From assembly GCA_027624855.1 (NCBI GenBank), contig JAQBTQ010000012.1, positions 1,724 through 65,723 of the forward strand: a stretch of 64,000 nt of DNA, in the 5' to 3' direction. The DNA comes from Bacteroidota bacterium. Its GTDB lineage: Bacteria > Bacteroidota > Bacteroidia > Flavobacteriales_D > Sanyastnellaceae. Positions 6,791-51,565 of the stretch are shown here, piece after piece; positions within the stretch are counted from its first letter, which is position 1; each line of letters opens with the position of its first letter. The translations under genes were made by a program, and so were the position numbers. The notes under the pieces were generated by a model. The model was not told the origin of the DNA. It worked only from the letters and a program-made list of their open reading frames with translations, and did no database searches.

Positions 6791-8242
6791 ATGATTCAAA
6801 TCAGCAACTTGATTGGTGGGCAATTTGAAGATCCAATTGACGGAATGTGGATGCCCAATGTGGAACCTGCCACGGGAACTGCCTATGGAAGAATCCCTCG
6901 CTCCAATGCCAAGGATGTAGAAAGAGCGGTTCAGTGCGCAGAATCCGCTTGGCCCATCTGGTCAAGCACACCCGTGGAGGAACGAAGCGCATGCCTTCGT
7001 CGATGGGCACAGTGCATTGCTGAAAATGCCGAAGAATTGATTCATCTTGAATCTCGGGACAACGGAAAGCCGATATCACTTGCGCAGTCTGTTGACATTC
7101 CGCGAGCTCAAAAGAACCTCGAGTTCTTCGCTGGAGCGATAGAACACTTTGCATCTGAAGCGCACATTCCAGCCGGGGCCACACACATCCATTATACCCA
7201 TAGAAAATCCATTGGTATCGTTGGGTGCATTTCTCCGTGGAATCTTCCTCTGTATCTGTTTACTTGGAAAATCGCGCCGGCCCTTGCTGCTGGAAATTGC
7301 GTCATTGCAAAGCCCTCTGAAATTACGCCCATGACCGCGTGGATGTTGTCAAAATGGGCGAAAGAAGCCGGGTTTCCCGATGGGGTATTCAATGTGCTTC
7401 ATGGATTGGGAAACGAGGTAGGACAAGCCATTGTCGAGCATCCAAAAATCAAAGCCATCTCTTTTACTGGAGGAACTCAAACCGGGGCACATATTGCACG
7501 CACTACAGCTGGACAGTTTAAGAAGTTGAGCTTGGAATTAGGGGGTAAAAACCCGGCAATTGTTTTTGCAGATTGTGATTTTGAATCTGCAGTTTCTACA
7601 ACCGTTCGGTCATCTTTTGCGAATCAGGGTCAAATTTGTCTGTGTTCCTCGAGAATTTTAATTGAAGAGAGCATCTATGACGCTTTCCGCGATGCATTGG
7701 TTGAAAAAGCCAGCCGAATCATTCCCAGCGACCCAATGGAACCCACGACCAAAATGGGTGCCGTGGTTTCCGAGGACCACCGGAACAAAATCCTCAGTTA
7801 CATCCAATCCGCCAAAGAGCAAGGTGGTTCCATACTATGCGGCGGGGAAGTGGCTCCAAGCCCGAACGACCGCTGTAAGAATGGTTTTTTCGTGCAACCA
7901 ACCATTATTGAAGGACTTGGGGCTGATTGCTCAATCAATCAAGAAGAAATTTTTGGCCCAGTCATCACCTTGCAACGGTTTTCGAGCGAAACTGAAGCAG
8001 TGGATTTAGCAAACAACAGTGATTACGGATTGGCATGTACGATTTGGACCCGTGACGTAAGTCGTGCACACCGTGTCGCTTCTCAAGTGGAAAGCGGTAT
8101 CGCTTGGATCAATTGTTGGTTGGTACGGGACTTAAGGACCCCATTTGGCGGGGTGAAATCGAGTGGAGTCGGAAGAGAAGGGGGATTTGAAGCGTTGCGC
8201 TTTTTTACTGAAGCACAAAACGTCTGCATTCCGACGAATTAG
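6791..8242 (+). CDS. NAD(P)-dependent aldehyde dehydrogenase family protein
   Basis: 483-aa ORF with the catalytic Glu motif LELGGKNP, the catalytic Cys motif FANQGQICLCSSR, and FTGGTQTG. The specific substrate cannot be assigned from the sequence. Confidence 0.92.
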   Translation: MIQISNLIGGQFEDPIDGMWMPNVEPATGTAYGRIPRSNAKDVERAVQCAESAWPIWSSTPVEERSACLRRWAQCIAENAEELIHLESRDNGKPISLAQSVDIPRAQKNLEFFAGAIEHFASEAHIPAGATHIHYTHRKSIGIVGCISPWNLPLYLFTWKIAPALAAGNCVIAKPSEITPMTAWMLSKWAKEAGFPDGVFNVLHGLGNEVGQAIVEHPKIKAISFTGGTQTGAHIARTTAGQFKKLSLELGGKNPAIVFADCDFESAVSTTVRSSFANQGQICLCSSRILIEESIYDAFRDALVEKASRIIPSDPMEPTTKMGAVVSEDHRNKILSYIQSAKEQGGSILCGGEVAPSPNDRCKNGFFVQPTIIEGLGADCSINQEEIFGPVITLQRFSSETEAVDLANNSDYGLACTIWTRDVSRAHRVASQVESGIAWINCWLVRDLRTPFGGVKSSGVGREGGFEALRFFTEAQNVCIPTN

Positions 8243-8519: not shown

Positions 8520-9494
8520 ATGAAAAAAATATTTTACCTCTCTGTTCTTCTGTATCCCTTGCTATTGCTGCAAAGCGGATGCGTTACCATGAAACAATTC
8601 GACGAACTTCAAATGGACCTCGACCAAATAGCAGAAGAAAATCGACGACTGACATTATTGAATCAAGATGGTGAAATTGAACGCCGAGAATTGACTGGAA
8701 CGGTCGAAGTACTCGAAAAAACCAATTCTGAATTGATTTCGGATACGACGCGACTGAATCGAGCTCTTTTTGAAGCTCAAGAAGAAGTAAATCGACTGGA
8801 AAATTTGAATGACGTCCTCACTTCTGAAAGTTCGTCACGCATGGCGGCCATCAACGATGAAAACCGGGCCCTTTTGGAAGAGTTAAGCCGAAATAGAGCT
8901 GCACTTCAAGTCCAAGAAGATGATTTGCATCAATTGAATTCAGATCTGCAGACGCGTGAGGCGGAGTTGGCAAACCGATCGGCCAGAATCGAAGAATTGG
9001 AAGGGCTATTGTCCGCTAGAGATGCTGCGGCACAAGCATTGCAGACTCAGCTTTCAGAGGCATTGTTGGGATTCGCAGACAAAGGTCTCACAGTCGAGCA
9101 ACGCAATGGAAAAGTGTATGTAAGCTTAGAGGCTCAATTGCTTTTCCCTTCGGGAAGCACTGCAATCAATAGCGACGGTGAAAAAGCATTGCAAGATTTA
9201 GCTCAAGTCGTGAGCAATCAAGAAAACCTCGAGATCATCGTTGAAGGGCATACCGACTCGGATCAATTGCGATCGAGTATCATCCCTCGCAATAATTGGG
9301 AATTGAGTGTGCTGCGATCAACCGCAGTTGTGGAGATATTGACCGCAGCTGGCGTACAACCGGAAGCACTTTCCGCGTCTGGAAGGAGTGAATTCCATCC
9401 GATTGACGCCAATGACAAAGCGAAAAATCGACGGATTGAAATCGTGCTGGCACCGAACTTAGATGCCCTGTTTGATCTCATTCGATCAAACTAA
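8520..9494 (+). CDS. OmpA-family lipoprotein with a long coiled-coil region (MotB/Pal-like C-terminal domain)
   Basis: The ATG at 8520 gives MKKIFYLSVLLYPLLLLQSGC (lipobox). The central region is heptad-rich. The C-terminus has an OmpA-like peptidoglycan-binding motif (IIVEGHTDSD...NWELSVLRSTAV...GRSEFHPI...NRRIEIVL). The GTG at 8496 in the ORF track is less likely to be the start. Confidence 0.85.
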   Translation: MKKIFYLSVLLYPLLLLQSGCVTMKQFDELQMDLDQIAEENRRLTLLNQDGEIERRELTGTVEVLEKTNSELISDTTRLNRALFEAQEEVNRLENLNDVLTSESSSRMAAINDENRALLEELSRNRAALQVQEDDLHQLNSDLQTREAELANRSARIEELEGLLSARDAAAQALQTQLSEALLGFADKGLTVEQRNGKVYVSLEAQLLFPSGSTAINSDGEKALQDLAQVVSNQENLEIIVEGHTDSDQLRSSIIPRNNWELSVLRSTAVVEILTAAGVQPEALSASGRSEFHPIDANDKAKNRRIEIVLAPNLDALFDLIRSN

Positions 9495-45859: not shown

Positions 45860-47878
45860 ATGCGCCTTGTTTCAATTTCTTTCTTGCTGACGTTTTTGAT
45901 GGTCTGCAATCCCCAAAGTTGGGGACAACGCTCTTGTGCCACTGACTCCGTCCATGCCCAGATGATGGGACTGGCCGGTTATGCTGAGGTATTCCAAAAC
46001 AAGGTGAACCTCGTAAATCAGGCTGCTGAAAGTGGAGCCATGGATTGTGCCACGCCACTCATCATACCCGTTGCTGTGCATTTCCAAAACACAGGGATTC
46101 CAGAAGCCTGCGCGATTGACATGGCGCTTGATCAAATTGAAATTTTGAACCAGGACTTTGCAGCTATCAATCCCGACATTTCCCAATGGTATGCGCAACA
46201 ACCGTCGATTTGGCCGGACATCAGTAACGCAGAATCGTGCATTCAATTTTGCTTGGCCACCTCGGATCATCCAGCTGGGTTTGGCTTAGCTGAAGGAGAT
46301 TATGCGGTGACCATTGACCAAACCACAGGTGACTTCAATTCTTCGTGGTCAGGTTATCTCAATTTTTGGGTTCGTGATATCGGACCTTTGGGTTATTCGC
46401 CATTGGGAGGAAACGGAAATGGCGATGGCGTGACCTGCCATCCACAGGCTTTCTCAAGCATATCATGCGGTGGGAACTCCTTGTACGGAGCCTACAACTT
46501 AGGGCGAACCATTACCCACGAAGTAGGGCATTACTTGCTCCTGAACCATCCATGGGGCAACGGTGGTTGTTCTTCAACGGATAACGTTGCCGACACTCCG
46601 GTCACGAGTGAACCCATCTTCGGCTGCCCATCCGGACAGAGTATTGTCAACTGCACTGAGCCAGTGCTTTGGCCTTCTTACATGGATTACTGCAATGACG
46701 CATGCCTGTTTATGTTTTCGGCAGGTCAAGTCACACGCATGGAAAATTACGTGACGTCATCGCTGCAAAATTTGCTGAATAATTCTGTGACAGCCTGCCA
46801 AGATCCCTGTGATACCGCTTGTGGGTGTACGGACCCCGATGCCTGCAATTATGATGCTGCAGCCGCGAATGACGACGGTTCTTGTGATTACAGTTGTCAG
46901 GGCTGTACCGACAGCACTGCCTGCAATTATGATCCTGATGCTACGGATGATGATGGGTCTTGCGTGTTTCCCACCGAAGGCTTTCCGTGCGACTGCAATT
47001 TGGACCTTGATTTCAACCTAACCAACGCCGGAACTGGGGTAGGTGATGCGGAAATCGTCGCAGCTACAGCCACATCAAATGTCACTTCATTTTCGATTGA
47101 GTTGACCTACTCCGATGTTTCGGGAGGAAGCTGGGCTGGAGACTTGTTGCTGGGCATTTGCGATCCCAATGGAACCTGCATTGAAATCGGAGGCTACAAC
47201 ATGTCATACGGCTACACCGACGCCGGCGGATGGCCTGCAGGTTGGAACTCCGAGGCTGCCGGCACATACACAGCGACAATTAACGTGTCGAGCTACGGTT
47301 TAACAGGAGCGGGGGACTGGTCGTTCGAGTGGATTAACGGCTGGAGTAGCACCACTGCTTCTGCCACTTGGGTTGGGTCAATGACGATTGAGGACCTTTG
47401 CCCAGGAGTAGTCGGGGAAGATGTGGAAGGATGCACGGATTCAACTGCCTGTAATTATAATGCTGCCGCAACCCTCGATGATGCGTCATGCGCTTACGCC
47501 AGCGGCTGTGATTACTGTTCTGGTGAAGTTGATGGCACCGGAACCATTGTGGATGGCGATGCCGATGATGACTCGGTTTGCGATGAAAACGAAATCGAAG
47601 GGTGTCAAGATCCAGAGGCGTGCAATTACGACGACTCCGCTACTGATCCTGCAACCTGTGAATATGCAGCTGAAGGCTTTGATTGCGACGGAAACCCCTC
47701 AGGCGGTTGCCCTGAGGACATCAACGGAAACGGTACCGTTGAAGTGGCTGATGTTTTGTTGTTGCTTGCCGAATTCGGATGCACCTCCAATTGTTCAGCT
47801 GCTGACATCGACGGAGACGGCGCAGTCAGCGTTTCAGACATCTTGATGTTGTTGGCTGCGTTTGGAGAGGAGTGCTAA
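45860..47878 (+). CDS. Secreted M43 (pappalysin/cytophagalysin-type) zinc metalloprotease with Cys-rich modules and a C-terminal double dockerin-like segment
   Basis: Signal peptide; zinc site HEVGHYLLLNH; DNVADTP; a Met-turn region SYMDYCND...FSAGQVTRM; CTD..ACNYD modules; a C-terminal DINGNGTVEVADVLLLLAEFG...DIDGDGAVSVSDILMLLAAFGEEC. Confidence 0.85.
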   Translation: MRLVSISFLLTFLMVCNPQSWGQRSCATDSVHAQMMGLAGYAEVFQNKVNLVNQAAESGAMDCATPLIIPVAVHFQNTGIPEACAIDMALDQIEILNQDFAAINPDISQWYAQQPSIWPDISNAESCIQFCLATSDHPAGFGLAEGDYAVTIDQTTGDFNSSWSGYLNFWVRDIGPLGYSPLGGNGNGDGVTCHPQAFSSISCGGNSLYGAYNLGRTITHEVGHYLLLNHPWGNGGCSSTDNVADTPVTSEPIFGCPSGQSIVNCTEPVLWPSYMDYCNDACLFMFSAGQVTRMENYVTSSLQNLLNNSVTACQDPCDTACGCTDPDACNYDAAAANDDGSCDYSCQGCTDSTACNYDPDATDDDGSCVFPTEGFPCDCNLDLDFNLTNAGTGVGDAEIVAATATSNVTSFSIELTYSDVSGGSWAGDLLLGICDPNGTCIEIGGYNMSYGYTDAGGWPAGWNSEAAGTYTATINVSSYGLTGAGDWSFEWINGWSSTTASATWVGSMTIEDLCPGVVGEDVEGCTDSTACNYNAAATLDDASCAYASGCDYCSGEVDGTGTIVDGDADDDSVCDENEIEGCQDPEACNYDDSATDPATCEYAAEGFDCDGNPSGGCPEDINGNGTVEVADVLLLLAEFGCTSNCSAADIDGDGAVSVSDILMLLAAFGEEC

Positions 47879-48171
47879 CGGTCAGGTCGGTTTGGATCAC
47901 GGTTTTGCCCTGAAGCAATCCGTTATTCATTGTTCTTGAGGGATAACTCAGAAGTTTAAAGCATCGGACGAAGGCATCGTAAAGCTTGTGCCAATCAGCA
48001 GCAGATTGAATGCAGCATGAGCATTTACTCGATTCCTTTTTGGGATAATTGATCATAGTGCAAAAATTCACCCATTGCTCACAAGCACCATGAAATGCGC
48101 ATTGAATCCCTTTGTAAAAACGACTAGAACTTTGAATCAATAATGACTCATTGATTCTTTTCTCAAAAGAA

Positions 48172-48197
48172 AAAGGCCCGACTGTTCGTGGGCCTTT
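48172..48197. terminator. Bidirectional rho-independent terminator hairpin in a convergent gap
   Basis: AAAGGCCC-gactgttcgt-GGGCCTTT forms an 8-bp GC-rich stem. It has an A-run upstream and a T-rich run downstream. It begins 31 nt past the stop of the minus-strand 114-aa gene. Confidence 0.55.
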
Positions 48198-48227
48198 CTC
48201 ATTCAATATCATTAAATACTTTACTTC

Positions 48228-48572
48228 CTATTCTGTTCTTTCCGATTGGAGGACCAAATCCTCTTTCCTTCGACGCACAATCATCAATCCTCCGAATGCA
48301 GCGCCACCGAGCAACAAGAACAGCACACCTGAATCAATGGGGGTACACGACATGTCGCATCCAGCAGAGACCGTACTTGGACAACCCGTATCAGAGAAAC
48401 AAAATGTTTGGGAATAATTGCAAGCGTTCCATATCTGACAGCAAGGCTGTCCTTCTCCGCAAGGAATGCAATCGGTACACGATGATTGAGCGCTAACTGA
48501 AACTATGCACAATGAATAAACTCCAATGGAGACTAACAGCAATCTAATTTTATTCTTCATTTCTATTTTCAT
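48228..48572 (-). CDS. Small Cys-rich secreted or anchored protein with a tripartite C-terminal sorting-like signal
   Basis: 114-aa ORF with a signal peptide (...CIVSVSAQ), 10 Cys in about 47 aa including a CTD...ACNY signature, then PID-SGVLFLLLGGAAFGGLMIV-RRRK. Its ATG overlaps the stop of the upstream gene as ATGA. Confidence 0.65.
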   Translation of the reverse strand: MKIEMKNKIRLLLVSIGVYSLCIVSVSAQSSCTDCIPCGEGQPCCQIWNACNYSQTFCFSDTGCPSTVSAGCDMSCTPIDSGVLFLLLGGAAFGGLMIVRRRKEDLVLQSERTE

Positions 48573-51277
48573 TCACAGGTTGAACCAAAATATGGCAAGA
48601 ACATCAACAAATCCGATGTAGTGATGATTCCATCACAATCACAATCTGTTTGCAAAATTGGTTGTTCAAGATTTGAAACTGGTTGCAACTCAATCAAAAG
48701 CATTAATAAGTCAGGAATATCACGTCCACCATTGAAATTGAAATCCCCAAGACAAACATCCGGTATTTCAAGCATATCCGAGGTCGTACATCCATTCAAA
48801 GTATTCACGGCATTAAGTTCATATGTTCCTGGATCAAGGTTCGTTGCGCACCCTTCTCCTGACATTTCACCACTATCCCAAGTAATATTCCAATTTTGGG
48901 CATTTCCACCATTGAAATGAATGGTTCCTCCTTCACAATGTGATACGGTTTGTTCGAAGACCGGAGTTGACAGGAATTCCAAATAAAATCTGTTTTCATA
49001 CGTCTCCATAGGCTCCAATTCCAATGACATCGTTTCAGACGCAACGTCTATTGCTTCCTCGGTTACAGTATCAATTAATCGTGCACATAAACCAGCAGGT
49101 AATTCTGTCGATTCATCTATGGATATTGAGACTTGGCCATCCACTCCTGTCTGGATAGTCAAGGCTATCATTTCGTTTGAATTCTCCAACATAAATGGAA
49201 CATTCACCGCAAGTTTTGTCCCATCTTCCAGTTGGCTAAAAATTCGAGGATTCGCAGATGCCCCCGCCTTATATGGTGCATCAAGGCCTGGCTGGAAATC
49301 CGCTTCACCCTCTAAATGAAACTTGATGGTTGTCCCGCCATACCGTTCCGATTCATCCTCTATGTTCAGTGCGAAAGCACCTTGGAGACTCGTATCTTCA
49401 GAACGTGTAAAAGTATTTCCTCCATAGCACGCTAAATTTGGAGTAAAGGATGCTGTGCCTCCATTACCTGAAGCAACATAAGCATAAAATCCTTGACCAA
49501 TGTCAATAGCATCCGGCGCTTCGAGAGATCCCACCTGGCTGCTACTCAACCAATTGCCGGAGGAGTTTTGAAGAATGTAATACTCACTTACACTCCCATT
49601 GTTTGAAACAAACGCATCCCCATCGATTGGAGTGGGATAAGGATTGACAAGCAAATTCCAACCCGCAGGATCATAGAATTGGTTGTAGGGGCCAGCGGTA
49701 TGAGAAACTCCAGGCGAGACAGTGGCGGTGGTATAAGTGCCTGAATTAGAAAGGGTGTGTCCCGATGTTCCAAGGCTAGAGGGTACAATACTAAAATACC
49801 CAATTCCGTCAGTTGAAAGTGTTGAAGTGGAATTCATGTACGTCCAACCATTCGTGCCATTTGCATTCGCGTTCACCGTTTCATCGTGACTGTAGACATA
49901 GATACTCCCACCAAAATCATCCATCCAATCTTGAACATCCATAGCTGGAGATGTGGTTACGTAGTTTCCCATTACCAACCACGTCGTCGTAGCTGTACTA
50001 GGCACATACCGCTCAAAAGTGATGTTGCCGACGACGTTTGACGTGGCTCCAGAGTTTTCGAGTGTCGCTATGCGCGCCGTACCCGAAGCGTTGGAATTCA
50101 TCGTGAACGTTCCCGAAATGTTGGTCGTGCCATCAACGGGATTGAACACTCCGCCAGGTGTGATATCCACATTCGCGTTGAGGTCGACGTCTTGATCATT
50201 TGTAGCCGTGTTATTGGTGTTTGCAACAACCAAAGAATCCACGGTAATGACATTTCCTGTTAAGTCCTGATCTGCACCAGCTCCATTAAACTTCACCATT
50301 CCAAAGGCAGAGCTTGTCGCGTTGTGAGTGAAATCTCCTGCGAGAATTAGGTTTCCTTCGTCACCTGAAACTGTTGCACTGGCACCAAGTGTGAGGTCTC
50401 CCAAAACGACTAAATTACCCTTCCCTTCGGTTGTGGGCATGGTAATGGTTGCAGTATTGGCTGTTCCGGCTGAGAAGTCTAGGGTCACTTTCAGGTCACC
50501 CAAGAAATCGGATAGATCAATTGATGAGGTTGGGCCAACGATGTCAAAATTTCCAAGGCATGTGTACACCCCAGTTGAGTCGGCAAAATCCAATGACGAA
50601 CTGCCCTCAACAGAAACATGATGAGGCACACCACCACCAGAGGTAGCATCCATGGTCCACTCCGTTCCAATGACGTAAGCATTGTTGTAACGCAAGGTTG
50701 AGGATCCTCCGTAGATGGGTGGATTTTTAACAACCCCACCGCCATCCAACAATAGTTCATTGGTAATTGTCGATTCAACGGTGGGAGTTACACCATCATA
50801 AGACGGGCCGAAATCTACAACAGCGCTCGATGGAATTTCAACATTGTAAAAAGTCACCCCCGATGTACACGTTCCATCGATTGTCCGCTGAGAACCACCA
50901 GACGCAACGGTAGAATTAAAAATGAACGTCCCAGTTTGGGCATTCAATCCCGTGCAAGTGTTCGCGTAAAACTGATCCGTTATGGTAACTGTGTAAGAAC
51001 CACAATTCAACACTCCAGTCCCTGAGAGCGTCAGCGTCGAAATGCTCACATCTGAGTCCAAATTGATTTTCGCATTGGGACCAATTTGAACGTTATCGCC
51101 TGAACTTGGGGCAGATCCCCCCGACCAAGCGGTTCCGTCAGACCAGTTCTTAGTTCCCGTAAAGGAAGTGGTCACGACAGTCGTAGGTTGGGCATAGGCC
51201 ACGACAGCCATCAAAAACATGAGTGGAGTAAGCACGGATTTGGTCCATGCGGAGATTGTAGGTTTTGTCTTGAACAT
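48569..51277 (-). CDS. Large secreted beta-helix/adhesin-like protein with a C-terminal double dockerin-like segment
   Basis: The ATG at 51277 gives MFKTKPTISAWTKSVLTPLMFLMAVVAYAQ. The sequence is Gly/Thr/Ser/Asn-rich and repetitive beta-strand-like. The C-terminus reads DFNFNGGRDIPDLLMLLIEL...DCDCDGIITTSDLLMFLPYFGSTCE. There is no T9SS tail. Confidence 0.82.
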   Translation of the reverse strand: MFKTKPTISAWTKSVLTPLMFLMAVVAYAQPTTVVTTSFTGTKNWSDGTAWSGGSAPSSGDNVQIGPNAKINLDSDVSISTLTLSGTGVLNCGSYTVTITDQFYANTCTGLNAQTGTFIFNSTVASGGSQRTIDGTCTSGVTFYNVEIPSSAVVDFGPSYDGVTPTVESTITNELLLDGGGVVKNPPIYGGSSTLRYNNAYVIGTEWTMDATSGGGVPHHVSVEGSSSLDFADSTGVYTCLGNFDIVGPTSSIDLSDFLGDLKVTLDFSAGTANTATITMPTTEGKGNLVVLGDLTLGASATVSGDEGNLILAGDFTHNATSSAFGMVKFNGAGADQDLTGNVITVDSLVVANTNNTATNDQDVDLNANVDITPGGVFNPVDGTTNISGTFTMNSNASGTARIATLENSGATSNVVGNITFERYVPSTATTTWLVMGNYVTTSPAMDVQDWMDDFGGSIYVYSHDETVNANANGTNGWTYMNSTSTLSTDGIGYFSIVPSSLGTSGHTLSNSGTYTTATVSPGVSHTAGPYNQFYDPAGWNLLVNPYPTPIDGDAFVSNNGSVSEYYILQNSSGNWLSSSQVGSLEAPDAIDIGQGFYAYVASGNGGTASFTPNLACYGGNTFTRSEDTSLQGAFALNIEDESERYGGTTIKFHLEGEADFQPGLDAPYKAGASANPRIFSQLEDGTKLAVNVPFMLENSNEMIALTIQTGVDGQVSISIDESTELPAGLCARLIDTVTEEAIDVASETMSLELEPMETYENRFYLEFLSTPVFEQTVSHCEGGTIHFNGGNAQNWNITWDSGEMSGEGCATNLDPGTYELNAVNTLNGCTTSDMLEIPDVCLGDFNFNGGRDIPDLLMLLIELQPVSNLEQPILQTDCDCDGIITTSDLLMFLPYFGSTCE

Positions 51278-51565
51278 AATCAAGTGACTCTGGCTCGGCT
51301 GGTTAGACCGAAGGTTAAGCACTCAAAAATACTACAAACCACTGAATTTTAAAAATGAAAATGATTTATTCCTAGACAAAACACCATTTCACTGCCGTGA
51401 ATGGCTCGAAAATTCCGATGACCGATTTGTCTTTTCTACAGCTATTGCTATCGTTTCCGAGTGTCCATAACCGAACAGCAGCGCAATTAATACTAAGAAA
51501 AATACAAGCGAAAAAAGCAAGATTTTAACTAAAAAGAAACGATTTCAGTGCGATATGCGGTTGTA

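Follow-up and report, generated by a model that had tools for sequence, protein, structure and literature searches.

Is the C-terminal tail of a small secreted protein in a marine member of the Bacteroidota a sorting signal that is read by an exosortase, or is it simply a membrane anchor? This question is raised by a 114-codon gene in the stretch of DNA analyzed here (the window), which comprises 64,000 nucleotides of contig JAQBTQ010000012.1 (positions 1,724 to 65,723) in assembly GCA_027624855.1. The organism belongs to a genus of the Sanyastnellaceae that consists of 29 species, all known as metagenome-assembled genomes of uncultured marine ‘Flavobacteriales’. A sequence-only reading of the window had proposed that the tail is a tripartite sorting signal of the exosortase type. 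Our combined findings support this proposal: the tail matches a curated sorting-domain model, the genome carries a single exosortase gene, and tail and enzyme co-occur across related genomes. We therefore consider it likely that the tail is a PID-CTERM sorting domain and that the 114-amino-acid protein, hereafter the mini-protein, is the single substrate of exosortase X (XrtX) in this genome.

The mini-protein gene lies on the minus strand at 48228..48572 (window coordinates; the features of this gene that follow are all on the same strand), with its stop codon at 48228-48230. It was identified from the list of open reading frames (ORFs), from its match to the NCBIfam model NF046080 and from its homologues. 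Since 23 of the 29 genus species have such a homologue, as do 107 protein clusters from public metagenomes, the gene is real. Translation from an alternative start, M5 (48560), would yield the 110-amino-acid form that is present in public collections. The protein begins with a signal peptide (residues 1-28; 48489..48572) made up of a K/R-rich n-region, a hydrophobic core and V-S-A, followed by Q. The ectodomain (residues 29-75; 48348..48488) is 47 residues long and has 10 Cys when Cys76 is counted in. The sorting domain (residues 76-114; 48231..48347), supported by the NF046080 match, consists in order of C-T-P-I-D (C76-D80, with the PID motif at 48333-48341), an uncharged Gly/Ala/Leu helix of 19 residues (81-99; SGVLFLLLGGAAFGGLMIV; 48276-48332), the basic cluster RRRK (100-103; 48264-48275) and 11 final residues, EDLVLQSERTE (48231-48263). 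The last 38 residues in translation read TPIDSGVLFLLLGGAAFGGLMIVRRRKEDLVLQSERTE (48231-48344). Thus, the earlier description of a PID motif, a hydrophobic helix and RRRK within the last 38 residues was exact, and the ORF ends where it was said to end.

The sequence-only reading had mentioned a ‘PID-CTERM’ model. Such a model exists as NF046080 (PID_CTERM), and it matches residues 77-94 of the mini-protein with 26.3 bits (E = 4.8e-6), above the curated cut-off of 26; in a six-frame search of the genome the same site scored 28.5 bits. By this profile match, the tail belongs to the curated PID-CTERM family. The six-frame search covered the whole assembly (2.29 Mb in 40 contigs, 96.6% complete) and yielded no site other than the mini-protein tail at E ≤ 10. 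A regular expression for P-[IVLM]-[DE] followed by a helix and a basic tail, applied to all stop-to-stop ORFs of the genome, found no second case. The tail, reported earlier as the only one of its kind in the window, is by both scans the only one in the genome as well. A pattern scan of the genome's ORFs for a C-terminal helix with a basic end returned just eight other proteins, all of them unrelated, and none of 14 control genomes had an NF046080 match above the cut-off. The type IX secretion system (T9SS) was correctly named as the usual sorting route, with type A C-terminal domains (CTDs) above the cut-off in ~66 ORFs of the genome; the models for this domain (TIGR04183 / PF18962) gave no match on the mini-protein.

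PID-CTERM proteins and XrtX form a kind of system that is already catalogued in NCBIfam (NF046080, NF046081 and NF046082). In the canonical form found in this order, a precursor of ~70 residues carries ~20 Pro/Gly-rich residues with two Cys between the signal peptide and a tail of the type C-(x)-P-I-D-G-G-V-S-L-L-I-A-A-G-L-A-L-G-G-K-K-A-Y-D. NCBI labels the canonical proteins ‘PID-CTERM protein-sorting domain-containing protein’. We compared an alignment of 59 mini-protein homologues of the genus type with one of 39 canonical proteins, several of which are named PID-CTERM by NCBI, and hhalign aligned the two over 20 columns (C-x-PID...GG) with 97.1% probability (E 6.4e-11). Homology between the two groups is limited to the tail. 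A precomputed Pfam accession, PF28310.1, is common to the canonical proteins and to the mini-protein's own cluster. Both types share C-(x)-P-I-D followed by a small residue, a Gly/Ala/Leu helix that runs to G-G, a basic cluster and a short extra tail, as canonical members also end ~8-10 residues past the first basic pair. They further share a signal peptide ending in A-Q, a single substrate per genome, and the presence of XrtX together with a homologue of its downstream membrane protein.

Conservation within the genus argues for a recognized helix. Among the 59 homologues, the mean frequency of the commonest residue is 0.97 in the tail core (residues 76-95), compared with 0.61 in the ectodomain and 0.33 in the signal-peptide helix. 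The contrast between the two helices, which is the best argument internal to the protein, suggests that an enzyme recognizes the C-terminal helix, which would then be more than a membrane plug. If the tail were instead a plain stop-transfer anchor, the mini-protein would be an unprocessed type I inner-membrane protein in which the PID motif is incidental or has a structural role; the D80-S81 bond would then stay intact and RRRKEDLVLQSERTE would be left on the mature protein. A hydrophobic helix followed by RRRK suffices for retention in the membrane, and an AlphaFold2 model built from the 59-sequence alignment shows residues 82-112 as one continuous, unbroken helix. Moreover, no cleavage has been reported for the PID-CTERM family in the searchable literature, and the gene is not linked to xrtX in the genus. 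Such an anchor, however, has no need of 20 nearly invariant residues. In addition, it leaves unexplained why the tail is homologous to tails encoded beside xrtX in other genera. Apart from the C-terminal helix and the signal peptide, modelled as a helix over residues 5-26, no part of the model was confident (predicted local distance difference test, pLDDT, 62 overall); below 50 for residues 42-78, it gave no confident fold for the ectodomain. Conserved motifs were nonetheless recognizable in the ectodomain alignment, namely CC-x-[VI]-[WY]-N-A-C-N and G-C-D-[LM]-S-C.

The genome has exactly one exosortase-family gene, located outside the window on contig C21 (C21:83768-84262) downstream of an adenosylhomocysteinase gene. 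Its 194-residue product scores 174.2 bits against the exosortase X model NF046081 (cut-off 170). XrtF, which the sequence-only reading had named among the enzymes to look for, was not borne out: its model, TIGR04128, comes second for this protein with 72.2 bits, under the cut-off of 90, whereas true XrtF proteins of other genomes score 205-228 bits. The archaeosortase A (ArtA) model gave 20.5 bits, far under its cut-off of 75. An alignment of 28 sequences, 27 of them XrtX proteins from other genera, shows that C100, N138, R141 and H161 are retained and that these are all of the invariant polar residues. The next gene after xrtX encodes a weak homologue of the XrtX-associated membrane protein.

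It had also been suggested that a genome with no exosortase-family enzyme and no second protein with the same tail would point to a plain anchor. The first half of this pair does not hold, given the XrtX found here, while the second half does, as no other tailed protein was found. A lone tail is no argument for an anchor, however, because one substrate per genome is the norm in this order.

We examined the co-occurrence of tail and enzyme in 101 related genomes drawn from the genus, the family and the order. Of these, 83 had an XrtX-type gene and 67 a PID-CTERM match, the 67 all falling within the 83; the 18 relatives that lack an XrtX-type gene had no PID-CTERM match (Fisher p = 6e-11, with shared ancestry ignored). 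In four genera of the window's own family both genes are absent together, indicative of co-loss. This strict co-loss is left unexplained by a plain anchor, a reading that we regard as unlikely. In a wider sample of 251 genomes from across the phylum, a PID-CTERM match was found in every genome with XrtX above the cut-off (45 of 45). Furthermore, xrtX is immediately preceded by the PID-CTERM gene in 28 of 30 loci from other genera, and a gene for a Wzc-like polysaccharide tyrosine autokinase lies just 5' of the PID-CTERM gene in 24 of these 30 canonical loci. From these adjacencies, the canonical cassette can be described as a Wzc gene, a PID-CTERM mini-protein, XrtX and a partner membrane protein. 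Exosortases have long been associated with polysaccharide loci, and the canonical cassette recalls that association. The Wzc homologue of the window's genome lies at a contig edge (C35:6-1688), with five genes for proteins with dockerin-like ends, a module described below, just 5' of it.

A sorting signal need not be cut by an exosortase. The tail could in principle be processed by a rhomboid or by a CPBP-type ‘myxosortase-like’ protease, with lipidation of the Cys that precedes PID. An invariant Cys stands one or two positions ahead of P-I-D in canonical and genus proteins alike, and it resembles the invariant Cys of MYXO-CTERM signals (bioRxiv 10.1101/2023.06.07.544157; PMC11980579). The genome also has four generic rhomboid-like ORFs, and four genomes of the phylum sample (G117, G163, G175 and G279) have a PID-CTERM match with no XrtX-like gene at E ≤ 1e-20. 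Set against this, rhombosortase, for which the earlier reading had proposed a scan, was not found in the genome: the best score with TIGR03902 was 37.6 bits, far under the cut-off of 84, and generic rhomboids are likewise present in all 14 control genomes. Nor does the tail reach the cut-off of other sorting-signal models, with 12.3 bits for PEP-CTERM (TIGR02595; cut-off 16) and 12 bits for LPXTG (TIGR01167; cut-off 15.9), the latter through the helix and basic part only. Both the adjacency to xrtX and the 45 of 45 co-occurrence favor XrtX, and we consider processing by a different enzyme highly improbable.

Several observations weigh against assigning the mini-protein to XrtX. The pass over the NF046080 cut-off is marginal, and the match begins at profile position 1 but breaks off at 18/19 of 25. 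Within the genus, the tail is under this cut-off or missed in 16 of the 23 species that bear homologues and passes in 7. XrtX scores 158-171 bits, against the cut-off of 170, in all genus genomes in which its match is unfragmented. Most species of the genus sit just under both cut-offs, with 158-169 bits for XrtX and 19-26 bits for the tail (cut-off 26), so that automatic annotation labels the system in only a minority of them. Unlike canonical members, the genus proteins are 105-130 residues long and have a Cys-rich ectodomain, their helix is four residues longer, and their basic cluster is Arg-rich (RRRK here) in place of Lys-Lys. The homologue of the XrtX-associated downstream membrane protein is weak (25 bits with NF046082; cut-off 75). 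The co-occurrence statistics do not take shared ancestry into account. The mini-gene, moreover, is not beside xrtX in the genus, being on another contig here and 465 kb away in G017; it is usually found instead 3' of a gene for a surface protein of ~900 residues. The link between tail and enzyme in the genus therefore rests on genome-level co-occurrence. Finally, the searchable literature contains no Bacteroidota exosortase with a demonstrated substrate or cleavage product, and we found no mention of PID-CTERM or XrtX in it.

Two further observations bear on linkage. In a different genus of the same family (G056), a Cys-rich PID protein of the RRRK type adjoins xrtX and thus constitutes a bridging form. 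In another class of the phylum (families f40, f41 and f59), each genome with XrtX has 1-23 PID-CTERM ORFs of 60-170 residues that match the full length of the NF046080 profile and are scattered over the chromosome. Adjacency to xrtX hence does not define the family, and the one-substrate state is not general.

If the mini-protein is indeed an XrtX substrate, its maturation may proceed as follows. The precursor would be exported by Sec, and the presence of the signal peptide implies that the tail faces the periplasm. The predicted signal peptidase I cut falls between VSA and Gln29, which would become the N-terminus; we inferred this site from the -3/-1 rule and judged the signal peptide by inspection, and at least 90% of the 59 homologues share Q29. 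N-terminal Gln is commonly cyclised in Bacteroidota. In the periplasm the Cys-rich ectodomain would be oxidised and form disulfides, while the C-terminal helix would anchor the precursor in the inner membrane, RRRK facing the cytoplasm. These early steps follow from the sequence. By co-occurrence and by analogy with archaeosortase A, XrtX, acting at the outer leaflet, would then read the C-x-P-I-D-S-G-V-L-F-L-L-x-G-G-x-x-F-G-G face, which is nearly invariant. It would cleave at or just after PID through Cys100, aided by Asn138, Arg141 and His161, and would hand the ~50-residue product to an acceptor, which may be a lipid or a polysaccharide; both the position of the cut and the acceptor are suggested by the action of ArtA on PGF-CTERM.

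How does this putative system compare with those already known? The PGF-CTERM/ArtA system of Haloferax volcanii has the same tripartite layout, and its enzyme belongs to the same superfamily and likewise has conserved Cys and Arg residues. The system is archaeal, however, its motif is PGF and its cargo consists of large glycoproteins. ArtA cleaves PGF-CTERM, after which a lipid is attached, and the conserved Cys173, Arg214 and Arg253 are essential; ArtA is the sole member of the superfamily for which C-terminal cleavage and lipid attachment have been proven experimentally (PMC9263693). PEP-CTERM/XrtA of exopolysaccharide-producing Proteobacteria has the tripartite tail and the exosortase family in common with the mini-protein system, and it shares with the canonical PID/XrtX cassette the link to polysaccharide loci through the Wzc-like kinase gene. 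XrtA-type enzymes are larger, with eight transmembrane segments, and PEP-CTERM genomes usually have many substrates. The T9SS type A CTD likewise sorts secreted Bacteroidota proteins from their C-terminus and is the main such element in this genome; it is a ~70-residue beta-sandwich recognized at the outer membrane, in contrast to the membrane-spanning helix of PID-CTERM.

The XrtF system of Flavobacterium johnsoniae is similar in that a short (~180 residues) Bacteroidota exosortase is followed by a small partner membrane protein. XrtF is also the nearest relative of XrtX, yet the enzyme found here falls under the XrtF cut-off, as stated above. Knowledge of XrtF is limited to knockout phenotypes: the enzyme and its partner are required for biofilm formation and surface colonisation (PMC10936215), and the substrates of XrtF have been stated to be unknown (bioRxiv 10.1101/2024.12.02.626408). 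In this regard, our searches returned two mini-proteins of a related kind. In G155, the XrtX model matches a single protein, which proves to be a true XrtF (205.6 bits with TIGR04128), yet the genome encodes a conserved mini-protein above the PID-CTERM cut-off (L079; G155:C1:1069250-1069495). A similar one is found in G319 (L080; G319:C32:21788-22135), where the enzyme is in the XrtF range as scored on the XrtX model only. In each, a signal peptide and a Pro-rich stretch precede P-I-D-G-G, a helix and a Lys-rich basic cluster. Neither gene is linked to that of the exosortase; genes resembling those for riboflavin synthase and polyprenyl synthase lie on either side. The two mini-proteins are candidate substrates of XrtF. 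The largest genus of the phylum sample among those with XrtF-range scores, g67, has no PID-CTERM match, and XrtF was confirmed for two of its genomes.

The mini-gene does not stand alone. Upstream of it, and apparently co-transcribed with it as judged from the ORF list and the junction sequence, is a 917-codon gene for a secreted protein of ~900 residues (48569..51322, minus strand), whose TGA overlaps the ATG of the mini-gene (ATGA). A pattern match to a Bacteroidota-type -7 box, TATTTTTG, lies at 51324..51331 on the same strand, 2 nt 5' of the GTG at 51322, and may act as the promoter of the large gene. Given the position of this box, the gene probably starts at the ATG at 51277 (Met16), which gives a protein of 902 residues beginning MFKTKPT. 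At the other end, ~30 nt 3' of the mini-gene stop, a hairpin resembling an intrinsic terminator (GAGAAAGGCCCAC...GGGCCTTTTTCTTTT) with a T-run lies at 48165..48200 on the minus strand. The RNA fold has an energy of -22.8 kcal/mol (z = -4.4), and none of 200 shuffled sequences was equally stable. A sigma-70 promoter/terminator scan, which is uninformative for Bacteroidota, missed this hairpin. The mini-gene and the 917-codon gene thus look like one operon with the hairpin at its end.

For the large protein, AlphaFold2 gave a model (pLDDT 79; predicted template modelling score 0.67) with an N-terminal region resembling a parallel beta-helix, beta-sandwich domains and a poorly modelled, dockerin-like, Cys-capped C-terminus. 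A Foldseek search against the PDB gave nothing at E ≤ 0.001, with generic Ig/FN3 and tailspike-like similarity only. There was no NCBIfam or PDB sequence match either, and Pfam matches (for example to G8) were all sub-threshold.

This arrangement raises the possibility that the mini-protein is mainly a subunit or tether of the ~900-residue beta-helix protein, its tail serving the complex and not marking a free-standing XrtX substrate. The overlap of stop and start codons and the single terminator, located 3' of the small gene, are compatible with this, as is the Cys-richness of both proteins at the relevant ends. The large gene precedes the PID gene in ~15 of the 22 genus loci, and the pair occurs in the same order on metagenome contigs L072 and L073. 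Four of these 15 copies of the large gene have decayed, however. In G008, G011, G021 and G027 it is fragmented or has stop codons while the mini-gene is intact. In three other genomes (G013, G009 and G007) the mini-gene is kept without the large gene. Since the mini-gene survives both loss and breakage of its neighbor, the mini-protein does not depend on it. In addition, the dockerin-like end is abundant in G031, G033, G038 and G059, all of which lack XrtX and PID-CTERM. We consider it unlikely that the tail serves such a complex.

The neighborhood varies on contig L073, whose large protein has 60% identity to that of the window. Two tandem mini-genes of the genus PID-CTERM type (7712-8062 and 8596-8955) lie there between the large gene and an M43 peptidase gene. 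In the window, a decayed second mini-gene in the 350-nt gap at 47879-48227 was considered and was not supported, with a best tblastn E value of 0.3.

The large protein is one of many with a dockerin-like end. In ~28 ORFs of the genome, a dockerin/EF-hand-like module ends 0-2 residues before the stop codon, with the consensus C-P-x-D-[LIF]-[ND]-x-D-G-x-[VI]-x3-D-L-L-x-[FL]-L-x2-F-G-x2-C-[EPN]. Two examples flank the mini-gene, at the end of the 917-residue protein (48572-48760, minus strand) and at the end of an M43 peptidase (47714-47875, plus strand). Only two of the ~28 ORFs reach the Pfam Dockerin_1 cut-off. With 22-76 matches per genome, the module is found in all species of the genus as well as in most genera of the family, including the four family genomes without XrtX. 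Elsewhere in the order it is nearly absent. Beside the T9SS domain, it appears to be a second class of C-terminal domain, one specific to this family, and none of the curated models searched covers it. A role for the mini-protein as a general receptor for these modules was rejected, the module being equally abundant where XrtX and PID-CTERM are missing.

A second element that recurs genome-wide is a 22-residue, disulfide-type repeat, C-T-D-x-x-A-C-N-Y-D-x-x-A-T-x-D-D-G-S-C-x-Y, with 129 copies in 33 ORFs. Its carriers include proteins with T9SS ends as well as proteins that end in dockerin-like modules, and no Pfam or NCBIfam model matched it on the M43 peptidase (45860-47878), the sole repeat protein scanned. 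The ectodomain of the mini-protein was considered as a copy of this repeat, which was not supported: hhalign gave 4.6% probability and aligned only C-x4-A-C-N.

What, then, would an XrtX substrate of this form mean for the genus? It is conceivable, though we attach little weight to it, that the XrtX system has been re-purposed, with the cargo-less Pro/Gly peptide that canonical members encode beside xrtX at the Wzc/polysaccharide locus replaced by a disulfide-rich module of ~50 residues that, after being cut and re-anchored by XrtX, tethers the co-transcribed 900-residue adhesin to the surface. If so, the module may bind the Cys-capped, dockerin-like C-terminus of the adhesin through a disulfide or in a Ca-dependent manner, and the pair would amount to a two-component adhesin anchored by an exosortase, although the T9SS is thought to fill that role in this phylum. 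The Cys-rich ectodomain of ~50 residues would yield peptides tractable for mass spectrometry of the mature C-terminus, unlike the canonical peptide of ~20 residues. More generally, an XrtX substrate encoded on another contig than xrtX would indicate that tag and enzyme need not be encoded together, or at a polysaccharide locus, in order to function. The kind of system is unchanged, and to it the window contributes a cargo-bearing, unlinked subfamily at the edge of the curated cut-offs.

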